A stretch of DNA of 52,199 nt, taken from Candidatus Sungiibacteriota bacterium (GTDB lineage Bacteria > Patescibacteriota > Minisyncoccia > Sungbacterales > HO2-52-23). Below are positions 2,850 to 50,120 of this stretch, piece after piece. Where the stretch lies: NCBI GenBank assembly GCA_016186095.1, contig JACPMG010000003.1, positions 1-52,199 on the forward strand, written 5' to 3'. The position numbers were made by a program, and so were the translations under genes. Position 1 is the first letter of the stretch. The number at the start of each line of letters is the position of its first letter. The notes under the pieces are model-generated. The model had not been told where the DNA came from. It did no database searches and saw nothing but the letters and a program-made list of their open reading frames with translations.

Positions 2850-4559
2850 TTAATTTTCCAAAATCACGAAATCTCCGGGCACGCGTACCCTTAACTGGGG
2901 ATTTTTTTGTTTAATTTCATTAATTAGTGCTTTGTCTTCTCCGTTAAGAAAAGCGATGACTGTCGGCTGATTACTGGTAACTAGTAACTGGTTACTAATA
3001 TTCTGCGGCAATACGTACTCCATATTTTTCTCCTTTTGTCCAGTTTCGCGAAAAGTATCTGTGGCAAACATTACGGTCTGCGCGGGCACGCTGATGCCGC
3101 GCACTTCAACTCCGGGGAGATTTACCACCACATATTTTTTGGTCTCATTCGGAAGACCGTCTAGAAATTTGCCAAGATGCCATAAATCGGTTGAGAAAGC
3201 AAAATAGGTCTCCTCGCTTCCGGCCCAACGGATAAAATAATTCCGGTAGGTAAGAATAGGGATTAGCGTCAGAAGCAAAATCGCCAGAAGCGCCACCTCT
3301 TTTTTTACCCTCTCAAGTTGGCCTATATACGTCGGCCATTTTAACTTCTGCAGATCCAGCCAATTTATAATCTTTTGGTAAATCCACCACGCCCCCAAGC
3401 CTGATAAAATCATCACCGGCGGGATTAGGCCGATGGAGCGAAGCGCATGAGGAAGGCCTTCGCGCGTTAGAGTGGCAGGGAGAGACATAAAGAGGAGCCA
3501 GGCTAGTAAGCTTGTAGTTTGTAGCTTGTAGCTTGTAGCGCGGAAAAATAGCTGACGGAGCATAAGGATAAAACCCGTGAGGAAGAATATGGCTACAACA
3601 GATTGGAGTTGGGGCTGGCAGGCAAAATTATGCCGCCAGTTGCAGTCGCCTCGTATAAAAAACATACCTAATGTTGCCAGATTTGATTTTATAAATTCCT
3701 TCAGAGGCGATATGGATGAGAAAATAGATACGTCTCCGGCTCTTCCCAGAAAGTCCTGCGGATTTTGTACAAAATGTAATCCGAGGGGAAGAGCGACCAC
3801 GAAGGTTATGAGAAAAAAAAGTAGTACCGCGCACGGCGCACAGTATTTATTCGTATAATTGGTATTCATTCGTATATTGGTATCGGTGTTCTTCCACCAT
3901 TTCCACAAATACCAAATAAGTGGAACTGCTAGGACAAACGGTATGAATCTGAAAGCAATGTACGTGTGAAAGCCAAGACCGATAAAAATCCCGGCCCAAA
4001 CCATATCCAGAATTTTTCCTTGCCGAAGCCCTTTTAGCAAAAAATATATTCCAAACGTTGCCAAAAACGGGATCATGATTGCCCGAAACCCTATGCGGGA
4101 GAAATTGATGTGCCAATAGCTCGTGGCCAAAAAGAAAGAGGAGAGCAGCGCTACGAAATACGAATTGGTACGAAAGTACGAAAGATTGTTTTTCGTAATT
4201 TCGTATTCTTTCGTATTTCGTAGCCAATGCGATTGTCCAAACAGTTCTTTGGTTAAAAGGTAAACTCCGAGAATGGTTAAAGTTCCAAAAATGGCGCTGA
4301 CTATTCGCAATGCCCATGGCTCAATTCCAAAAAGCCGAAGCGAGAGCGCCTGCAAATTTATAAATAGCCCTTCGCGGCCGTTATTTTCCGGATAAAACAC
4401 CTTGAAGTCGCCCGTGGCAATGGCTTCAAGCGCGTTATTCCCGTTCATGGCCTCATCCGGATAAAGTCCGGGCGGGACTTCGGTGATTTGGTAGAAACGG
4501 AAAAATGCGCCTATGGCTAGGATAAAAATAAGGGTGGCGAATTTCTGTCTTTTGCTCAC
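2850..4559 (-). CDS. ArnT/PMT-like GT-C glycosyltransferase, second paralog
   Basis: 569 aa with a GTG start. Polytopic, with loop motif LYPDEAMNGNNALEA. Carries three in-frame oligo-repeat modules. Confidence 0.8.
   Translation of the reverse strand: MSKRQKFATLIFILAIGAFFRFYQITEVPPGLYPDEAMNGNNALEAIATGDFKVFYPENNGREGLFINLQALSLRLFGIEPWALRIVSAIFGTLTILGVYLLTKELFGQSHWLRNTKEYEITKNNLSYFRTNSYFVALLSSFFLATSYWHINFSRIGFRAIMIPFLATFGIYFLLKGLRQGKILDMVWAGIFIGLGFHTYIAFRFIPFVLAVPLIWYLWKWWKNTDTNIRMNTNYTNKYCAPCAVLLFFLITFVVALPLGLHFVQNPQDFLGRAGDVSIFSSISPLKEFIKSNLATLGMFFIRGDCNWRHNFACQPQLQSVVAIFFLTGFILMLRQLFFRATSYKLQTTSLLAWLLFMSLPATLTREGLPHALRSIGLIPPVMILSGLGAWWIYQKIINWLDLQKLKWPTYIGQLERVKKEVALLAILLLTLIPILTYRNYFIRWAGSEETYFAFSTDLWHLGKFLDGLPNETKKYVVVNLPGVEVRGISVPAQTVMFATDTFRETGQKEKNMEYVLPQNISNQLLVTSNQPTVIAFLNGEDKALINEIKQKNPQLRVRVPGDFVILEN
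3508..3540. repeat. Tandem 7-mer AGCTTGT array inside a CDS
   Basis: agcttgt agtttgt agcttgt agcttgt agcg, translated on the minus strand as ATSYKLQTTS. Confidence 0.7.
3847..3885. repeat. Tandem TTCGTATA(A)TTGGTAT duplication inside a CDS
   Basis: Two adjacent copies, translated as NTDTNIRMNTNYTNKY. Confidence 0.7.
4150..4224. repeat. 75-nt (25-codon) palindromic ACGAA-rich element inside a CDS
   Basis: GCTACGAAATACGAA (4150-4164) is the exact reverse complement of TTCGTATTTCGTAGC (4210-4224). The length is a multiple of 3 and there is no stop. Confidence 0.75.
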
Positions 4560-5035: not shown

Positions 5036-7467
5036 TGTACCTTTTCTATTTATATCTTTTATTGATTTTTGTCATAGTCCTGGCTCTGCTGGCGGTTTTG
5101 ATATTGCGCGGATACGCCCGCCGCGGCCTGATTTCCCGTTCCCTTAATCTGGAGCTTCTTTTGGTAAGGTTTTCCCCTGTAGCACCGTCTCCGCAGGAGC
5201 CGACTATGCAGCAGATCCGGGAGAAGATCGCCCTGATGGAACAATTCTACAGTCACCTGCATTTAATACGCGACAACTGGTGGAGAAAATTGCTTTACGG
5301 CAAGCCGACTTTTTCTTTGGAACTCACTATCCCCTCAATCGGCGAGGAAATTTCATTTTATGTTGCCGTTCCGCGACGGCTCCGTATGGCTGTAGAAAAA
5401 GTTATTCAGGGTATTTTTCCCGATGCGCAGGTTGAAGTTTCGCGCGACTATAATATTTTCAATCCGGAGGGGCAGGCGGTGGGTGCGGGCATAGTTTTAA
5501 AAGAGAATAGATACTATCCCCTGAAAACTTATCAGAAATTAGAGGGTGATCCCATGAAGGAGTTAACCAACGTGTTTACCAAGCTTGCCAAGGAGGGCGA
5601 AGGAGCCGCGTTACAGATTATCGCGCGCCCGGCGCGCAAAAAATGGAGCAGAAAGTTAAAAGATCGCGCCAAAATACTTTTTGGCGGCAAAAAGGCAAAA
5701 GAGAGCGTATTATTGGGAGCCGTGCGCGGAGCAGGGGATTTCACCGGCATGACGCCCGGGGGCCCTGCGCAGGAGAGACCGGAGGAGCTAAAAAAAATAA
5801 CGCCCCTGCAGGAGGAAATCGTGCGGGCGCTGGAGAATAAGGCATCCAAACCTCTTTTTGACGCCAATATACGCATCCTGGCATCAGCAGTAGATGATGC
5901 GCGGGCACGCTCAATCCTGCAGGGATTGACACTCGCTTTTGCTCAGTTTGCCGACCAGAATTTAAACAGTTTTAAAATAATACCCATGGAGGGTAGGTCT
6001 TTAAAAAGTTTTATCTTCAATTTTTCTTTCCGCGGATTTGACGATTACAGAAAAATTATTTTGGGATCGGAGGAGCTGACGTCTATTTTCCATTTCCCCA
6101 ATATCCTTACCGAAACCCCGAAGCTGAAAATTGTGAAAGCGCGCGAAGCGCCCCCGCCGGTAAATGTTCCGCAAGACGGCCTGCTTCTGGGGTATAACGT
6201 ATTTCGCGGAGAAAAAACCGACATTAAGCTGTCGGAAGAGGATCGGCGTAGGCATTTATATATCATCGGGCAGACCGGAACCGGAAAGTCGGTTTTCTTG
6301 GAGAGTATGATTATTCAAGATATACAGGCCGGCAAAGGGGTGTGCGTTATTGACCCGCACGGAGATATGGTGGAGCGTATTTTGGGGTTTGTGCCGCGGC
6401 ATCGAGCGCAGGACGTGGTTTATTTCAACCCCGGAGATGTGGCGCGCCCCATGGGCTTGAACATGCTCGAATACGATCCTAATTTTCCCGAGCAGAAAAC
6501 TTTTATTGTAAACGAACTTCTCTCCATTTTTGACAAACTTTACAATATGTCCATTGCCGGAGGCCCGATGTTTGAGCAGTATTTCCGCAACTCCACGCTT
6601 CTGGTTATGGATGATCCAACGTCGGGCAACACTTTAATCGAAATTGAGCGGGTGCTTACCGATAAGCCTTTTCGTGACCTTAAACTTTCGCGCTCCAACA
6701 ACATCGTGGTGAAAAATTTCTGGACGCAGATTGCGGAAAAAGCCGGAGGAGAAGCATCGCTGAAGGATATGGTGCCTTATATTGCCTCCAAGTTTGATAA
6801 TTTTATTGCGAACGAAATCATGCGTCCCATAATCGCGCAGGAGAAATCCGCTTTTAATTTCCGCGAGGTAATGGATAATCAAAAAATACTTCTGGTCAAT
6901 CTTTCCAAGGGGCGTCTGGGCGATCTGAATTCTTCCCTTATCGGCCTCGTGATCGTGGGCAAGCTCCTGATGGCGGCACTCTCCCGTACCGATCAGCCCG
7001 AGGAGCGCAGAAAAGATTTTTATCTTTATATTGATGAGTTCCAAAACGTTACCACTGATTCTATCGCGACCATCCTCTCGGAGGCGCGAAAATACCGGCT
7101 TGATCTTATCATCACCCATCAATTTATCGGACAGTTGAAAGAAGAAATCAAAAAAGCGGTTTTTGGAAACGTAGGCTCCATGGTTTCTTTCCGGATCGGA
7201 TCGGATGACGGCGAATTTATGGCCAAGCAATATAAACCCGTTTTCTCCGAGCAGGATTTGCTGAATATAGATAACTTCAACTGCTACGTGAAGCTTTTAA
7301 TAAAAGGCCAGACCTCGCCGTCTTTCAGTATGAAGACCTATCCTTCGGGCAAGGGCGAGAAAGAAGTCGCCGAGATGATAAAAGAGATTTCCCGTACCAA
7401 ATACGGCAGGCCGCGAGAAGAAGTGGAGCGGGAGATCATGGAAAAACATCAGAAGCCAAGCTTTTAG
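5035..7467 (+). CDS. VirD4/TraD/TrwB-like type IV coupling-protein-family P-loop ATPase
   Basis: 810 aa with an N-terminal TM segment. Walker A is IIGQTGTGKS and Walker B-like is FYLYIDEFQN, followed by a THQFIGQL block. Confidence 0.75.
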   Translation: MYLFYLYLLLIFVIVLALLAVLILRGYARRGLISRSLNLELLLVRFSPVAPSPQEPTMQQIREKIALMEQFYSHLHLIRDNWWRKLLYGKPTFSLELTIPSIGEEISFYVAVPRRLRMAVEKVIQGIFPDAQVEVSRDYNIFNPEGQAVGAGIVLKENRYYPLKTYQKLEGDPMKELTNVFTKLAKEGEGAALQIIARPARKKWSRKLKDRAKILFGGKKAKESVLLGAVRGAGDFTGMTPGGPAQERPEELKKITPLQEEIVRALENKASKPLFDANIRILASAVDDARARSILQGLTLAFAQFADQNLNSFKIIPMEGRSLKSFIFNFSFRGFDDYRKIILGSEELTSIFHFPNILTETPKLKIVKAREAPPPVNVPQDGLLLGYNVFRGEKTDIKLSEEDRRRHLYIIGQTGTGKSVFLESMIIQDIQAGKGVCVIDPHGDMVERILGFVPRHRAQDVVYFNPGDVARPMGLNMLEYDPNFPEQKTFIVNELLSIFDKLYNMSIAGGPMFEQYFRNSTLLVMDDPTSGNTLIEIERVLTDKPFRDLKLSRSNNIVVKNFWTQIAEKAGGEASLKDMVPYIASKFDNFIANEIMRPIIAQEKSAFNFREVMDNQKILLVNLSKGRLGDLNSSLIGLVIVGKLLMAALSRTDQPEERRKDFYLYIDEFQNVTTDSIATILSEARKYRLDLIITHQFIGQLKEEIKKAVFGNVGSMVSFRIGSDDGEFMAKQYKPVFSEQDLLNIDNFNCYVKLLIKGQTSPSFSMKTYPSGKGEKEVAEMIKEISRTKYGRPREEVEREIMEKHQKPSF

Positions 7468-11183: not shown

Positions 11184-11240
11184 TTTATTGCGGGGTAGTG
11201 AAGTAGTATCACGCTTGCCGGCGTCTGTCCTACACAAAAC

Positions 11241-11311
11241 TCCGGGCTCGTCTAATGGTAGGACGGTGGCCTTTGAAGCCATTAATCTACGTTCGAATCG
11301 TAGGCCCGGAG
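11241..11311 (+). tRNA. tRNA-Gln (anticodon UUG)
   Basis: Hand-folded cloverleaf: acceptor TCCGGGC/GCCCGGA, anticodon loop CTTTGAA, T-loop TTCGAAT. No encoded CCA. Confidence 0.85.
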
Positions 11312-11348
11312 TTTTGTGCGGGATAGCAACTAATTTAGGTCCGTTTTG

Positions 11349-14873: not shown

Positions 14874-15071
14874 ATGACAGGAACTATCAAGACACTTACG
14901 GAAAAGGGGTTTGGATTTATTGCTCGCGAAGGCGAAACCAAGGATCTATTCTTCCATTCCAAGGAGTTGCAGGGTGTGACGTATAGTGAGCTGAAGGTTG
15001 GAGACACGGTCACTTTTGACGTCATCGAGACCGAAAAAGGCCCGGCCGCGACCAATGTATCACGTGCGTAA
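14874..15071 (+). CDS. cspA: Cold-shock domain protein
   Basis: 65 aa. Has KGFGFI (RNP1) and a FFHS RNP2-like motif. Confidence 0.9.
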   Translation: MTGTIKTLTEKGFGFIAREGETKDLFFHSKELQGVTYSELKVGDTVTFDVIETEKGPAATNVSRA

Positions 15072-15087
15072 AAGCTGATCTATGATC

Positions 15088-15125
15088 GAAAAGCCTTCTC
15101 GCTCGCGAGCGAGAAGGCTTTTCTT
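15088..15125 (+). terminator. Rho-independent terminator of csp
   Basis: Perfect palindrome GAAAAGCCTTCTCGCTCG/CGAGCGAGAAGGCTTTTC with a T-tract. Confidence 0.75.
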
Positions 15126-15144
15126 ACTGTTTCTAACGGGATGG

Positions 15145-15273
15145 ATCCCACACATAACTTTCACTGCGCTAAGTGCCAGTAGTAATGCTGTGGGAAAGTT
15201 AATTTTACGTTCACAAAAGACTTGTACGAGATAAAAGCTATTTTTTCTCTTTTGTGAAAGTTATGTGTGGGAT
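15145..15273 (+). promoter_or_regulatory. typA leader with a perfect 20-bp long-range inverted repeat covering the start codons
   Basis: ATCCCACACATAACTTTCAC (15145-15164) is the exact reverse complement of GTGAAAGTTATGTGTGGGAT (15254-15273). A competing 9-bp pairing joins 15211-15219 to 15249-15257. Confidence 0.5.
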
Positions 15274-17140
15274 GGAAATTAGAAATATAGCTATAATCGC
15301 CCATGTTGACCACGGGAAAACCACTCTGACCGATGCCATGCTGCGTCAGACCGGCGTTACCAAAGAAGGTGTTTCCATGGATTCCAATACGCTTGAACTT
15401 GAGCGCGGCATTACGATTTATTCCAAAAACGCGGCTATTTTTTATCCTTCGACAAGCACTTCAGCCATGAGCTCAGTGTCGAATGGCTCAGGACGTCCCG
15501 TAACAAAAATAAATATCGTGGACACTCCGGGACACGCGGATTTTGGATCTGAGGTGGAGCGAGTGCTCCGCTCCATAGATTCCGTACTTTTGGTGGTTGA
15601 CGCGCAGGAGGGGCCGATGCCGCAAACCCGCTTTGTCTTAAAAAAATCGCTTGAGCTTGGCCTGAAGCCGATCGTGATTATCAATAAAATTGATAAAGCC
15701 GCAGCCGATCCGGCGCAATGCGCAGAGCAGGTGCTGGAGCTTTTTTTGGAGCTGGGGGCTGACGATAGCCAAGCGAATTTTCCGATCGTATATGCGAACG
15801 GCAGGGCGGGCATTGCCAAGAAAAAACTTGCTGATGAGTCAAAGGATTTGACGCCGCTGCTGGATACGATTTTGGAGCATGTGCCATCGGCATCCTTGCC
15901 GGAATTATCGTCGCGGCCTCTTCGTTTTCAGCCCTTTAATCTCGCCTATGATAATTTTCTGGGACGCATGGCCGTGGGAAGGGTTTATGAAGGCGTGGTG
16001 CGGCCGGGCATGCAGGTTTTTGTGAAGAAAGACGGCGATGCATCCGCACAGGCAGGCGAAATTTCTTCCGGGAAAATAACTAAAGTTTTTACTTTCAGGG
16101 GCTTGGAAAGAATAGAGGCCGAGGAGGCAGGAGCGGGAGATATAGCGCTTATTGCGGGACTTGAGGGTATTGATATTGGCGTGACCGTTACTACCGATAA
16201 GGAGGCGTTGCCCCTGCCCGCAATTGCGGTTGATGAGCCGACCATTGCGCTTACGTTTCTGGTAAATAATTCTCCGCTTGGAGGACGAGAGGGAAAATTT
16301 GTCACCTCGCGCCAGATCAGGGAATACCTTGAGCGGGAATTGCAGGTGAACGTGGGACTTCGCGTTGACTTTACTTCAGCGGATAGTTTCCGGGTATACG
16401 GAAGAGGGGAGCTTCATATAGCTATCTTGCTGGAAAATATGCGGCGGGCCGGATACGAGGTCCAGGTTTCGCAGCCGCAAGTGATTATTCGCACGGAAAA
16501 CGGGGTGCGGCTGGAGCCTTTTGAGGAAGTGATTGTGGATACTCCCGCAGAATTTCAGGGTGTCATAATTGAGCGCTTGGGGCCACGCGGATTTGTTATG
16601 AAAAATATCTTTCAGAAGGGCGATCTTGTGCGACTTTCGTTTGAAGGGCCCACGCGAGGGCTTCTGGGATATCGCAACCAATTTGTAATTGATACGAAAG
16701 GGGAGGGCATTTTTTCTTCGCGCGTCCTCGGCTTCAGGCCTATGGTCGGAGAAATTTATAAACGCGCGGTGGGCTCCATGATTTCTATGGCGGCCGGAAA
16801 GGCCCTAGGATTTGCTCTTTGGGGCTTGCAGGAGCGCGGCACCCTTTATATAAGTCCCGGAACCGAAGTATATATAGGCATGGTCATAGGCAATACTTCC
16901 AAGGGCGAGGAGATGTCGGTGAATCCGACCAAAGGAAAACAGCTTACCAATGTCCGCGCCGCCGCATCGGATGAGGCGATTGATTTGGTGCCGCCGTTTA
17001 AACTCACCATTGAGCGCGGCCTTGAAGTTGTGGCCGAAGACGAATATCTTGAAGTTACTCCCCAAAGCGTTCGTCTGCGGAAGCAAAACTTGACCGAAGC
17101 GGAGCGCACGAAAGCGAAAAGACAAAAAACATATGACTAA
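15272..17140 (+). CDS. typA: Translational GTPase TypA/BipA
   Basis: AHVDHGKTTL (G1), DTPGHADF (G3), NKID (G4), and a BipA-type C-terminal region. The start could also be ATG 15263 or GTG 15254. Confidence 0.9.
   Translation: MEIRNIAIIAHVDHGKTTLTDAMLRQTGVTKEGVSMDSNTLELERGITIYSKNAAIFYPSTSTSAMSSVSNGSGRPVTKINIVDTPGHADFGSEVERVLRSIDSVLLVVDAQEGPMPQTRFVLKKSLELGLKPIVIINKIDKAAADPAQCAEQVLELFLELGADDSQANFPIVYANGRAGIAKKKLADESKDLTPLLDTILEHVPSASLPELSSRPLRFQPFNLAYDNFLGRMAVGRVYEGVVRPGMQVFVKKDGDASAQAGEISSGKITKVFTFRGLERIEAEEAGAGDIALIAGLEGIDIGVTVTTDKEALPLPAIAVDEPTIALTFLVNNSPLGGREGKFVTSRQIREYLERELQVNVGLRVDFTSADSFRVYGRGELHIAILLENMRRAGYEVQVSQPQVIIRTENGVRLEPFEEVIVDTPAEFQGVIIERLGPRGFVMKNIFQKGDLVRLSFEGPTRGLLGYRNQFVIDTKGEGIFSSRVLGFRPMVGEIYKRAVGSMISMAAGKALGFALWGLQERGTLYISPGTEVYIGMVIGNTSKGEEMSVNPTKGKQLTNVRAAASDEAIDLVPPFKLTIERGLEVVAEDEYLEVTPQSVRLRKQNLTEAERTKAKRQKTYD
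15446..15502. repeat. 57-nt (19-codon) palindromic in-frame insertion in the typA G-domain
   Basis: PSTSTSAMSSVSNGSGRPV lies between AIFY and TKINIVDTPGH, where E. coli BipA has only ND. Nested inverted repeats: TTCGACA (15448-15454)/TGTCGAA (15477-15483) and AGCCAT/ATGGCT. Confidence 0.7.
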
Positions 17141-18341
17141 TGAACACAACGATAATTTTAATGGTCTGGGCATAGCGCCCGGACTGCTGGAGATACTTGA
17201 AAAACTTCGCTACACCATACCAACCCCCATACAGCGCCAAGCCATTCCCCTGGCGATTGAAGGAAAGGACGTAGTGGGCATTGCCGAGACCGGCACCGGA
17301 AAAACTCTTGCTTTCGGCATCCCTATGATTCAGTTGCTCGCGCGAAAAAAAGGCCAGGGCTTGGCGCTTCTCCCTACGCGTGAGTTAGCACTGCAGGTAG
17401 AACAGGAGCTGCATAAAGTCGGCCGGCCCTTGGGTTTGAAAACCGCTGTCTTAATCGGCGGGATGTCTATGAGACCGCAAATTGCGGCTATCGCGAGGAT
17501 TCCTCACGTGATTATTGCCACTCCCGGGCGTCTGATTGACCACCTTCAGCAAAAGACTTTGCGCTTGGATAAGGTGAGCATTTTGGTGCTTGATGAGGCC
17601 GACCGGATGTTGGACATGGGTTTTCAGCCGCAGATCAGAAAGATACTTCAGGCCGTTCCCAAAGACAGGCAAACCATGCTTTTTTCCGCGACCATTCCTC
17701 CGGAGATTATGAAAATCGCCGGTGAGCATATGAAGCTACCCGTGCATGTGGAAGTGGCGCCCTCCGGAACGGCTCCGGAAACCGTAACGCACGAAATTTT
17801 CATTGTGGAGAAGGCCTCCAAACCCCGGCTGCTTATGGCGTTGCTAAAAGAGCATCGCGGATCAACCCTGGTTTTCACGAGGACTAAATTTGGCGCGAAG
17901 CGCGTTACCAAAGCTCTGCGCGCTTTGGGGGAGAGCGCTGCAGAAATTCATTCCAACCGCTCGCTTGCCCAGCGACGAGAGGCCTTGGAAGGATTTCGTT
18001 CCGGACGCTTCCGGGTTTTAGTGGCCACTGATATTGCCTCGCGCGGAATTGACGTGAAGGGGATTGAAACGGTCATAAATTATGATCTGCCATCGCAGGC
18101 AGAGGATTACGTGCATCGCATTGGCCGGACCGGACGCGCGGGAATGACCGGACACGCTATTTCTTTTGCCGAGCCCTCACAGCGCAATGAAGTCAGGGCC
18201 ATTGAGCGCCTGATGCGCAAAGCCGTTCCCGTATCTTTGCCTCCGGCAGGGTTTTCGCAAGAGGCGGGCGAGCGCGCCGAGTTTAACGCGCCTCGCCCGG
18301 TGCGCTATCCGGGCATGAACCGCCGCCGCCGACGGTGGTGA
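17133..18341 (+). CDS. DEAD-box ATP-dependent RNA helicase
   Basis: Q-motif, AETGTGKT, DEAD (VLDEADRM), SAT and HRIGRTGR. Arg-rich tail. Confidence 0.9.
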   Translation: MTNEHNDNFNGLGIAPGLLEILEKLRYTIPTPIQRQAIPLAIEGKDVVGIAETGTGKTLAFGIPMIQLLARKKGQGLALLPTRELALQVEQELHKVGRPLGLKTAVLIGGMSMRPQIAAIARIPHVIIATPGRLIDHLQQKTLRLDKVSILVLDEADRMLDMGFQPQIRKILQAVPKDRQTMLFSATIPPEIMKIAGEHMKLPVHVEVAPSGTAPETVTHEIFIVEKASKPRLLMALLKEHRGSTLVFTRTKFGAKRVTKALRALGESAAEIHSNRSLAQRREALEGFRSGRFRVLVATDIASRGIDVKGIETVINYDLPSQAEDYVHRIGRTGRAGMTGHAISFAEPSQRNEVRAIERLMRKAVPVSLPPAGFSQEAGERAEFNAPRPVRYPGMNRRRRRW

Positions 18342-20300: not shown

Positions 20301-20463
20301 ATAATTTTGATTAAAGGTTAGACTATAGTTAATATATAATAGAGTAGGGGAGTTTTCCACTTTCATCTGTGGATAAAGACTTTGCTTCGCCATTCCTGTA
20401 TGATACGGTGAAGCCGCTTCTAACGGGGTTGCCTACCCGAAGGCGGTCTGATATACTTAAACT

Positions 20464-20868
20464 ATGAGATTGACGTTGGCTTTAATCATCTTGTCGGTTT
20501 TGCTGGGTATGGGCATATTCGGATTTGCCGGAATATCGTGCGAGGCGGGGGCTGGCGCGCATTGTTGCCTGGCGGAAATTATCAATCTGAGTATTTGTCC
20601 CAGTGAGAACCCGCTGGCGGTCATAGATTTTCATTTTGGCGCTTTGCAGAGTTTTTCCACGGCTACGATAGACGCAGGAGTGATTGCGGCCTTTTTAGTT
20701 CTTGCCGTTTTTACGCTGGTTTTCTCTGCGGCTTTATTTTCCATGACTCCAGATTTACATATTATCACCCGCGGTTTTTGGGAAACTTTGCCGAGAATCT
20801 CGGCGTCAGCACGGGTAGAGAGTCTTTCTTGGCTAGCGCTTCACGAGAATAGTCCGGCTATTTTTTAG
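20464..20868 (+). CDS. Hypothetical membrane protein with a Cys cluster
   Basis: 134 aa, 2-3 TM, with CEAGAGAHCC. Confidence 0.45.
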   Translation: MRLTLALIILSVLLGMGIFGFAGISCEAGAGAHCCLAEIINLSICPSENPLAVIDFHFGALQSFSTATIDAGVIAAFLVLAVFTLVFSAALFSMTPDLHIITRGFWETLPRISASARVESLSWLALHENSPAIF

Positions 20869-46665: not shown

Positions 46666-46699
46666 ATAACAATTTTAATTTCATTGTAAAACCATTTTC

Positions 46700-46771
46700 T
46701 CCCCAGTAGCTCAGCGGTAGAGCGGCTCGCTGTTAACGAGAAGGTCCCAGGTTCGAATCCTGGCTGGGGAG
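46700..46771 (+). tRNA. tRNA-Asn (anticodon GUU)
   Basis: Hand fold: acceptor TCCCCAG/CTGGGGA, anticodon loop CTGTTAA, T-loop TTCGAAT. Flanked by a perfect 14-bp leader/trailer inverted repeat. Confidence 0.9.
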
Positions 46772-46798
46772 AAAATGGTTTTACTATTTTTTATACAG

Positions 46799-50024: not shown

Positions 50025-50120
50025 CCAATACGCCATCCGCTGTGCCCTTCCGTAGCTTTAAATTCAATACGCCAGCCGAGTGGCGTATTGAAAAAAGCGA
50101 AGGAGGGGATGGCGTATTGG
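50025..50120. repeat. Nested perfect inverted repeats built on CAATACGCC
   Basis: The outer 14-bp pair is CCAATACGCCATCC (50025-50038)/GGATGGCGTATTGG (50107-50120). The inner 12-bp pair is TTCAATACGCCA (50063-50074)/TGGCGTATTGAA (50081-50092). Confidence 0.7.

Follow-up and report, generated by a model that had tools for sequence, protein, structure and literature searches.

The stretch of DNA analyzed here (52,199 nt; contig JACPMG010000003.1 of assembly GCA_016186095.1, assigned to a Candidatus Sungiibacteriota bacterium; hereafter the window) is a piece of a Patescibacteria chromosome of the Paceibacteria/Parcubacteria type, about 90% coding, whose genes include those for DnaX, DnaG, RpoD and a P-type ATPase. 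At its typA/bipA locus a cold-shock-domain protein gene (csp), a terminator-like palindrome, the gene for the translational GTPase TypA (BipA) and a DEAD-box RNA helicase gene follow one another on the forward strand (Table 1), and two 20-nt arms, ATCCCACACATAACTTTCAC on the left and GTGAAAGTTATGTGTGGGAT on the right, form a long-range inverted repeat directly upstream of, and reaching into, typA. A first-pass annotation had offered a temperature- or Csp-responsive RNA switch as the function of this repeat, and a DNA-level feature, inverted repeats bracketing a segment, as the fallback. Here we show that the repeat delimits an element inserted at the first codons of typA, which left ATGGA on both sides, the right-hand copy serving as the working start codon, and we document homologous elements at unrelated genes of related bacteria; the fallback was thus essentially right.

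The arms are complementary at 20 of 20 positions across an 89-nt spacer, as first described, and an arm-like match arose in none of 100 dinucleotide shuffles of the window. When all 52 kb were scanned for the 20-mer with up to three mismatches, two sites were returned, namely the arms themselves. Measured over both arms, the element spans 129 bp (15145-15273); reading the flanking repeats as TGGA shortens it to 127 bp (15146-15272). Its right arm does hold the start candidates of typA that had been listed for it, GTG 15254, ATG 15263 and the AT of ATG 15272. The window TypA is 64-78% identical to the TypA of 160 Patescibacteria (the best matches being proteins of metagenome-assembled genomes), and because all 160 relatives begin MEIRNIAIIAHVDHGKT, we assign the true start to ATG 15272; the longest typA open reading frame (ORF) opens at GTG 15254 within the right arm and adds MKVMCG to the protein. 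Inspection by eye showed no Shine-Dalgarno sequence in either the right arm or the relatives' leaders. The identification of the upstream neighbor as a cold-shock gene is borne out by its Pfam domain. An exact-protein look-up for strain variants gave no record for typA and, for csp, led to the same short contigs only.

Table 1. Coordinates of features at the typA locus of the window and of copies of the element at related loci (L numbers).
Feature	Position	Strand	Remarks
csp, cold-shock-domain protein gene	14874..15071	+	PF00313 CSD, E = 8.7e-22; outside element
Perfect 36-bp palindrome, then TTTTC	15088..15123	+	Terminator-like hairpin after csp (16-bp stem, 4-nt loop, T-tail)
GTTTCTAACGGGAT	15129..15142	+	Relic right arm of family B, or ancestral typA leader
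Left direct repeat ATGGA	15141..15145	+	Copy of first 5 nt of typA; upstream ATG at 15141-15143
Upstream ORF (uORF), 13 codons (MDPTHNFHCAKCQ, then stop)	15141..15182	+	Opens at duplicated ATG, spans entire left arm
Left terminal inverted repeat (arm)	15145..15164	+	From repeat search; raised metagenome depth
Element spacer, 89 nt	15165..15253	+	First ~9-16 nt (TGCGCTAAG...) common to other family-A copies
Inner alternative hairpin	15207..15261	+	13/14 bp, -12.8 kcal/mol
Right terminal inverted repeat (arm)	15254..15273	+	Last two bases are AT of typA start codon
Right direct repeat ATGGA	15272..15276	+	True typA start codon plus 2 nt
typA/bipA translational GTPase gene	15272..17140	+	GTP_EFTU and BipA_C domains
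DEAD-box RNA helicase gene	17133..18341	+	PF00270 and PF00271; overlaps typA stop codon
Copy, family-A arms ATCCCACACATAACTTGTAC	L128:2681-2744		Two differences from window, both compensated; 24-nt loop; spacer start shared
Copy preceding membrane-protein gene	L103:4913-5053		87-95% identical to L117 typA element across arms and spacer
Copy at ATG of obg	L085:959-1095		Homologous to L095 typA element
Copy at ATG of DEAD-box helicase gene	L085:5652-5767		Family B
Copy at ATG of HMA-domain (HMA/copper-ATPase) gene	L003:3798-3922		Family B
Copy at ATG of small membrane-protein gene	L044:5775-5853		Family B
Copy on TTGAC -35 box	L002:6690-6818		Related to L085 typA element
Copy on TTGAC -35 box	L003:1962-2034		

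A probable mark of insertion is a direct repeat of 4-5 bp, present in at least nine copies, whose sequence varies with the gene: ATGGA/ATGGA in the window and L004, ATGAA/ATGAA at the L085 DEAD-box gene, TATG/TATG in L095, L117 and L103, AATG/AATG at L085 obg, and TTGA/TTGA in L002 and L003:1962, with imperfect repeats in the L003 HMA copy and in L044. One clean pair of an empty and a filled site, L007 and L085, marks a 118-bp insertion. When the 118 nt between the ATGAA copies are taken out of the L085 helicase locus, the remainder is collinear with the empty ortholog in L007 (64/87 identical) over a stretch that includes the promoter and its -10 box 7 nt upstream of the ATG, and the L002 sequence ...GGCCTATTTTTT joined to ATGGAAAT corresponds exactly to the flanks of the L085 typA element. 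In the window, the left flank CTGTTTCTAACGGGATGG matches the native leader of L015, CTGCTTCTAACGGGATGG followed by AAATC, up to ATGG, and an empty site at this locus would read CTAACGGGATGGAAATTAG. Metagenome runs (see below) supplied 67 typA contigs from other species that meet the window sequence precisely at 15272, preceded by a T-rich leader; this is the empty state. The segment just left of the element, 15129-15142, is 17/18 identical (by eye) to the L015 native leader plus ATGG and agrees as well with the right arms carried by L004, L135, L044 and the DEAD-box copy in L085; a left arm partnering it was not found in the window.

To locate copies elsewhere, each typA element was compared by BLAST with 1.07 Mb of DNA fetched from related typA loci, and the genes concerned were identified with Pfam. 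The copies recovered beyond the window measure 62-137 bp, with arms of 13-35 nt, and the arms present three types of tip: A (ATCCCACAC...), B (TCCCGTTAGA...) and C (ATGCC[C]GGTAG...). Paired arms comprise 293 Watson-Crick and 14 non-Watson-Crick positions, and differences between copies are compensated; the non-Watson-Crick positions (6 G:T, 2 A:C and 6 other mismatches) were uninformative as to a G·U excess that would signal selection at the RNA level. These copies define a superfamily that is spread through Patescibacteria of the Paceibacteria type, nearly all of whose placed members abut the ATG of a gene and two of which abut a TTGAC -35 box. In the 1.07 Mb there are 55 long-range inverted repeats with arms of 13 nt or more and gaps of 20-400 nt; eight or more of them have an end on a start codon, where chance would give about 0.16 (P ~8e-12). 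By a rough estimate, starts of typA, a gene that opens with the near-invariant ATGGAAAT, are hit about eight times more often (~6-9 of 160) than those of neighboring genes (~7 of ~1000 other gene starts).

One related locus, L085 (Ga0315285_10004136), carries elements at 959-1095, 2373-2502 and 5652-5767, three arm subfamilies within 6.8 kb, and the genes bearing them (obg, typA and the DEAD-box helicase gene) all encode ribosome-associated factors; coincidence, local hopping or functional recruitment may lie behind this cluster. The window also contains a solitary GCTTCTAACGGGGT at 20416-20429, upstream of an ORF at 20464 and without a partner arm, which resembles a family-B right arm (the CCCC-tip variant of L003:1962-2034) and may be a decayed copy.

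Metagenome contigs extended these observations to other genomes. In four groundwater metagenomes that hold the window genome, its own contig covers 15094-15419 unchanged, neither an inversion nor an empty-site allele of the locus occurs among the contigs, and sequence depth over 15141-15166 and 15252-15276 rises about 10-fold above the flanks. At least nine other contigs from the same four samples contain both arms, separated by spacers of 8, 20, 24, 86, 256 or 318 nt, and in these the right arm is followed by G and ORF-like sequence (e.g. MNGLSTSTK, MDENQITTRQL). Four further runs from other studies or habitats, the source of the 67 typA contigs mentioned above, were also tested; in three of them (lake water, an unlabelled sample and another groundwater) the window genome is absent and the arms recur with many short loops. 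Across contigs of the seven metagenomes the arms are 85-100% identical, with spacers of 8-318 nt.

We then asked how general the helix upstream of typA is. Of the 160 related typA loci fetched, 153 had enough upstream sequence to be scored for the best pairing of -260..-50 with -32..+6, the same right segment paired with coding DNA serving as the control (maximum 31). Scores well above the control were confined to the window (48), L085 (54), L095 (52.5) and L117 (57); L004 and L135 reached 33-34, and three or four weaker helices of other kinds (L049, L147, L133, L006) exceeded the control. A clear long helix is thus carried by about six of 153 leaders, and about 95% are without it. The six clear carriers share an architecture, in that the spacer is 73-94 nt long (86-94 nt in all but one), the right arm stops on or beside the ATG and the left arm follows a leader hairpin and T-run; their arm sequences differ. 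In a neighbor-joining tree of TypA they are scattered among non-carriers, and close relatives lack the helix (L086, 94% identical in TypA to L095; L002, 84% to L085; L051, 88% to L135). The scarcity of carriers, their scatter in the tree and the differing arm sequences rule out a conserved typA leader. The csp-typA adjacency occurs in none of the 160 related loci and is confined to the window. What looks like covariation among the typA leaders stems from distinct subfamilies of a mobile palindromic element; it is not a single orthologous RNA evolving by compensatory change.

Other leader architectures came to light in this set. Most relatives have a promoter, a small GC hairpin and ATTTTTATTT ahead of the ATG; at about -45..-1 this type (e.g. 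L001, L002, L005, L007, L009, L052) consists of a sigma-70-like promoter, a short GC-rich hairpin, ATTTTT(A)TTT and, directly, the ATG. This conserved terminator-like hairpin within a 5' leader corresponds to no Rfam family and could be an attenuator or a 5' stabilizing hairpin; in the window, the palindrome at 15088-15123 occupies the place of the GC hairpin and T-run. A second motif, ...GCCCACCCCAGTAG...(loop)...CTACGGGGCAAG..., lies at about -70..-15 in several distant relatives (L139, L141, L097, L011, L090, L083, L102, L018); all of these loci but L141 were submitted to Rfam, without a match at the gathering threshold, and the motif is a candidate for an undescribed structured leader.

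Taken together, the 20-nt arms are probably the terminal inverted repeats of a small, non-coding and palindromic mobile element, resembling a MITE (miniature inverted-repeat transposable element) or a REPIN (a pair of inverted repetitive extragenic palindromic, or REP, sequences), that entered at the typA start codon. Its size suits a MITE (129 bp, limit ~300-500 bp, with no ORF other than the 13-codon uORF), as do its perfect terminal repeats and the occurrence of copies beside different genes of different genomes, with both arms on at least nine extra contigs per metagenome. Judging from the duplications, the insertion target would be short, WTGR for families A and B and NATG for family C; outside ORFs, in AT-rich genomes that are ~90% coding, such targets would be found mainly at start codons and -35 boxes, and the insertions that survive would be those whose duplication restores the ATG and keeps the gene alive. 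The window, the 160 loci and collections of phage, plasmid and viral sequences yielded no autonomous insertion sequence bearing these terminal repeats, a weak negative given the small search space, and neither the arm in IMG/VR viral contigs nor the whole element in phage and plasmid records gave a match. The searchable literature holds nothing on such elements in Patescibacteria, and start codons go unmentioned in a review of prokaryotic MITEs from 2024 (PMC10969869); the family is, in these bacteria, previously undescribed.

Several observations weigh against a mobile element. The window contains no gene for a transposase, recombinase or REP-associated tyrosine transposase (RAYT) among its 33 ORFs searched with Pfam, and no long inverted repeats with family tips surround an ORF in the 1.07 Mb of related DNA; because no transposase or RAYT was found, we infer mobility from the distribution of copies, not from a known enzyme. 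One full copy is present in the 52-kb window, and that extra metagenomic copies belong to the window genome is suggested solely by depth ratios. The left ATG or the direct repeat is absent or degenerate in the gene-start copies of L085 typA, L128 and L135, and the left ATGG of family A is so frequent among metagenome copies that it could be part of the element and not a target duplication. The precision with which at least 11 copies meet a start codon is tighter than a 4-nt target combined with selection obviously predicts, scans upstream of the window element and within it gave no consensus promoter, and the strong conservation of the arms across habitats could signify a function for the host.

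At the RNA level, the segment 15126-15300 folds with a predicted energy of -53.4 kcal/mol (z = -5.2), the 20-bp helix closing a multiloop; omission of the left arm leaves an ordinary fold (z = -0.4). Any transcript containing both arms would bury the typA start codon by base-pairing, according to this model. The competing inner pairing noted in the first-pass annotation exists and is longer than had been stated, joining 15207-15220 to 15248-15261 at 13 of 14 bp, but the two-state leader built on it is not supported, as its predicted stability (-12.8 kcal/mol) falls 19.5 kcal/mol short of that of the 20-bp duplex (-32.3 kcal/mol). Temperature hardly alters the prediction: the probability that 15260-15277 is unpaired is 0.12 at 4 °C and 0.23 at 65 °C. 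Because the helix is so stable and the alternative so weak, neither a thermometer nor an equilibrium two-state switch is credible, and a thermosensor is rejected on predicted folds that fail to melt between 4 and 65 °C.

How typA is expressed from behind such a structure can be outlined in conditional terms. The element would be transcribed with typA from upstream, by read-through from csp (through or just after the terminator-like hairpin) or from a weak promoter, and a typA mRNA carrying both arms would therefore form a very stable 20-bp helix over its AUG. At the L085 helicase gene the native -10 box immediately precedes the left ATG, and transcription from this promoter would take in the whole element. 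In the window, the duplicated ATG at 15141 would keep the original initiation context and open the 13-codon uORF over the left arm, and one tentative route, for which we would not claim even odds, is that a ribosome translating the uORF unzips the helix and frees the real typA AUG. Comparable uORFs opened by a left ATG were read by eye in L004, L003, L044, the DEAD-box copy of L085, L095 and L117; none occurs in L085 typA, L128 or L135, and since these copies are without the left ATG or direct repeat, the duplication is not universal and the uORF is not a general route of expression. A slightly less likely possibility, by analogy with Correia elements, is that RNase III cuts the two-turn duplex and so lets typA be translated; an internal promoter that excludes the left arm from the typA mRNA seems unlikely. 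In the spacer, neither strand has a promoter that matches at least 8 of 12 sigma-70 consensus positions. The net effect would probably be a tolerated and roughly constitutive change in typA expression, and not a temperature switch. It is an improbable extension of this scheme that palindromic elements of Paceibacteria-type Patescibacteria integrate specifically at start codons, duplicate the ATG and create two-start genes, each with a short uORF and a long helix over the real AUG, as a portable module for translational control or RNase III cleavage of which the repeated capture at typA, obg and a DEAD-box helicase gene would represent host use and not mere tolerance.

Among other accounts of the repeat, we give a small chance to a 5'-untranslated cassette used by the host, as distinct from selfish DNA, in which a portable start-codon hairpin, perhaps originally spread by transposition, lets one factor (RNase III, a DEAD-box helicase, a Csp or a dedicated binding protein, for example) govern a set of genes. 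The arms are conserved at 85-100% across seven metagenomes and different habitats, against differences of 20-35% in the TypA of the hosts; orientation relative to the gene is constant within subfamilies; the three ribosome-associated genes within 6.8 kb of L085 each bear an element; and stems of exactly 20 bp, about the minimal substrate of RNase III, recur in five copies. A shared regulon sits poorly, however, with targets as varied as an HMA/copper-ATPase gene, small membrane proteins unrelated to one another, an ORF of 30 codons and promoter -35 boxes, with loop lengths of 8-318 nt, and with the absence of the element from most orthologs of every target gene, and no candidate factor was identified. 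The switch first proposed for typA, in which cold, Csp proteins or the helicase encoded downstream would open the long helix and so turn on BipA, is now very unlikely and is largely refuted by distribution. Its attractions were a helix that would bury the AUG, an inner alternative hairpin, and neighbors that are a csp gene and a DEAD-box helicase gene; these are outweighed by the stability of the helix and the weakness of its alternative as predicted above, by the want of either csp-typA or typA-helicase adjacency in all 160 loci, by the ~95% of typA leaders without the helix, by the same arms at other genes, and by the lack of an Rfam match.

Perfect inverted repeats that bracket a short segment might equally recall an inverton, in which an invertase flips an 89-bp promoter segment and so phase-varies typA, and Correia elements have been reported to invert (PMC10969869). 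We give this scant credence: contigs of four metagenomes read in a single orientation, free of strand-switch joints (minor variants may go unseen in contigs), the spacer lacks a promoter by the consensus measure given above, family members have spacers of 8-24 nt that are too short to invert, and no recombinase gene was found in the window. A local, one-off origin without family or function, such as an inverted duplication of the typA leader by template switching, would yield perfect arms, but it is refuted by the recurrence of arms and adjoining spacer in many unrelated contexts and habitats and is, to our minds, next to impossible. An integron attC site, a CRISPR and a tRNA-like spacer were also considered and dropped, as gene order and orientation do not fit and the repeats are inverted, not direct; ARAGORN and Rfam match nothing within the element.

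Beyond the element, Rfam searches at gathering and permissive thresholds returned tRNAs and a sub-threshold match to the cspA thermoregulator over the csp gene, and nothing else. The latter (RF01766; 14780-15122; 20.5 bits against a gathering threshold of 78, E = 0.003) covers the csp 5' region and gene, not the repeat. Between its G2 and G3 regions, the window TypA has a stretch rich in Ser and Thr, FYPSTSTSAMSSVSNGSGRPVTK (residues ~54-78; window ~15432-15506). It is missing or replaced in many related contigs, whose joints skip 57-75 nt, and is a lineage-specific insertion in the GTPase domain. Two tRNA genes of the window are themselves bracketed by inverted repeats, tRNA-Asn (46699-46772; span 46683-46787, arms of 24 nt, 96% complementary) and tRNA-Gln (11240-11312; span 11225-11326, arms of 23 nt, 87% complementary), whose arms lengthen the acceptor stem to a helix of more than 20 bp; similar flanks lie near tRNA-like sequences in L002 and L061, and these leader/trailer repeats may provide a double-strand-specific processing stalk for pre-tRNAs in these bacteria. 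Two further repeats are unrelated in sequence to the typA element: a 34-nt imperfect palindrome of TACGAAA-like units at 4150-4224, and, at 50025-50120, a terminator-like hairpin enclosed by nested inverted repeats of CCAATACGCCATCC.

Our analysis removes an attractive but mistaken annotation, that of a BipA cold riboswitch, and explains the repeat as an insertion; it points to undescribed small palindromic elements, in streamlined genomes of uncultured Patescibacteria, that sit on start codons and regenerate them. If this is true, the elements show how genomes that are ~90% coding tolerate mobile DNA, offer natural experiments on translation initiation in organisms where Shine-Dalgarno usage seems low, and carry a warning for gene callers, which are likely to mis-extend element-bearing genes, as from typA to GTG 15254 here.

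Several known systems invite comparison. RNA thermometers (ROSE, fourU, the cspA 5' untranslated region) likewise place a helix over the translation start, but theirs are short and imperfect and melt in the physiological range, whereas the helix here is a perfect 20-bp duplex predicted to stay closed to 65 °C. In the MS2 coat-replicase ("Min Jou") interaction and in E. coli rpmI-rplT, long-range pairing masks a start until an upstream ORF is translated; there, as here, a distant 5' segment pairs with the start region, and the window uORF at 15141-15182 covers the left arm. Those interactions are, however, conserved, gene-specific and experimentally verified, while the pairing at typA is a predicted by-product of an ATG-duplicating insertion and is missing in some copies.

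REPINs, like the present elements, consist of two conserved ends of ~20 nt in inverted orientation around a less conserved spacer, the whole unit forming a long hairpin. Their arms stay paired through compensatory changes (PMC3116915), and compensated arm changes are seen here too. REPINs differ in being extragenic without start-codon placement, in lacking target duplications and in their association with a single-copy RAYT flanked by REPs; in the family described here most copies have direct repeats, and the 52-kb window yielded neither a RAYT nor a Y1 transposase. A GTAG-like motif appears in family C arms only (GGTAG), a lead and not a test.

There is also a likeness to the Correia elements (CREE/NEMIS) of Neisseria, which are ~100-155 bp long with terminal inverted repeats of 20-26 bp and short target duplications, the duplicated sequence being TA. 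Most of them directly precede genes and are transcribed along with these to give long hairpins, as the typA element would be. In Correia elements RNase III cleaves such hairpins at their inverted repeats, with altered expression of the gene downstream (PMC2649163, PMC10969869). Unlike the elements described here, Correia elements carry promoters and a site for integration host factor and exist as hundreds of near-identical copies per genome; ours are of unrelated sequence, without a consistent promoter, and fall into highly diverse arm subfamilies. The present elements also occupy the very start codon and duplicate a sequence containing the ATG, and true targeting of start codons, if it occurs, would be the novel part.

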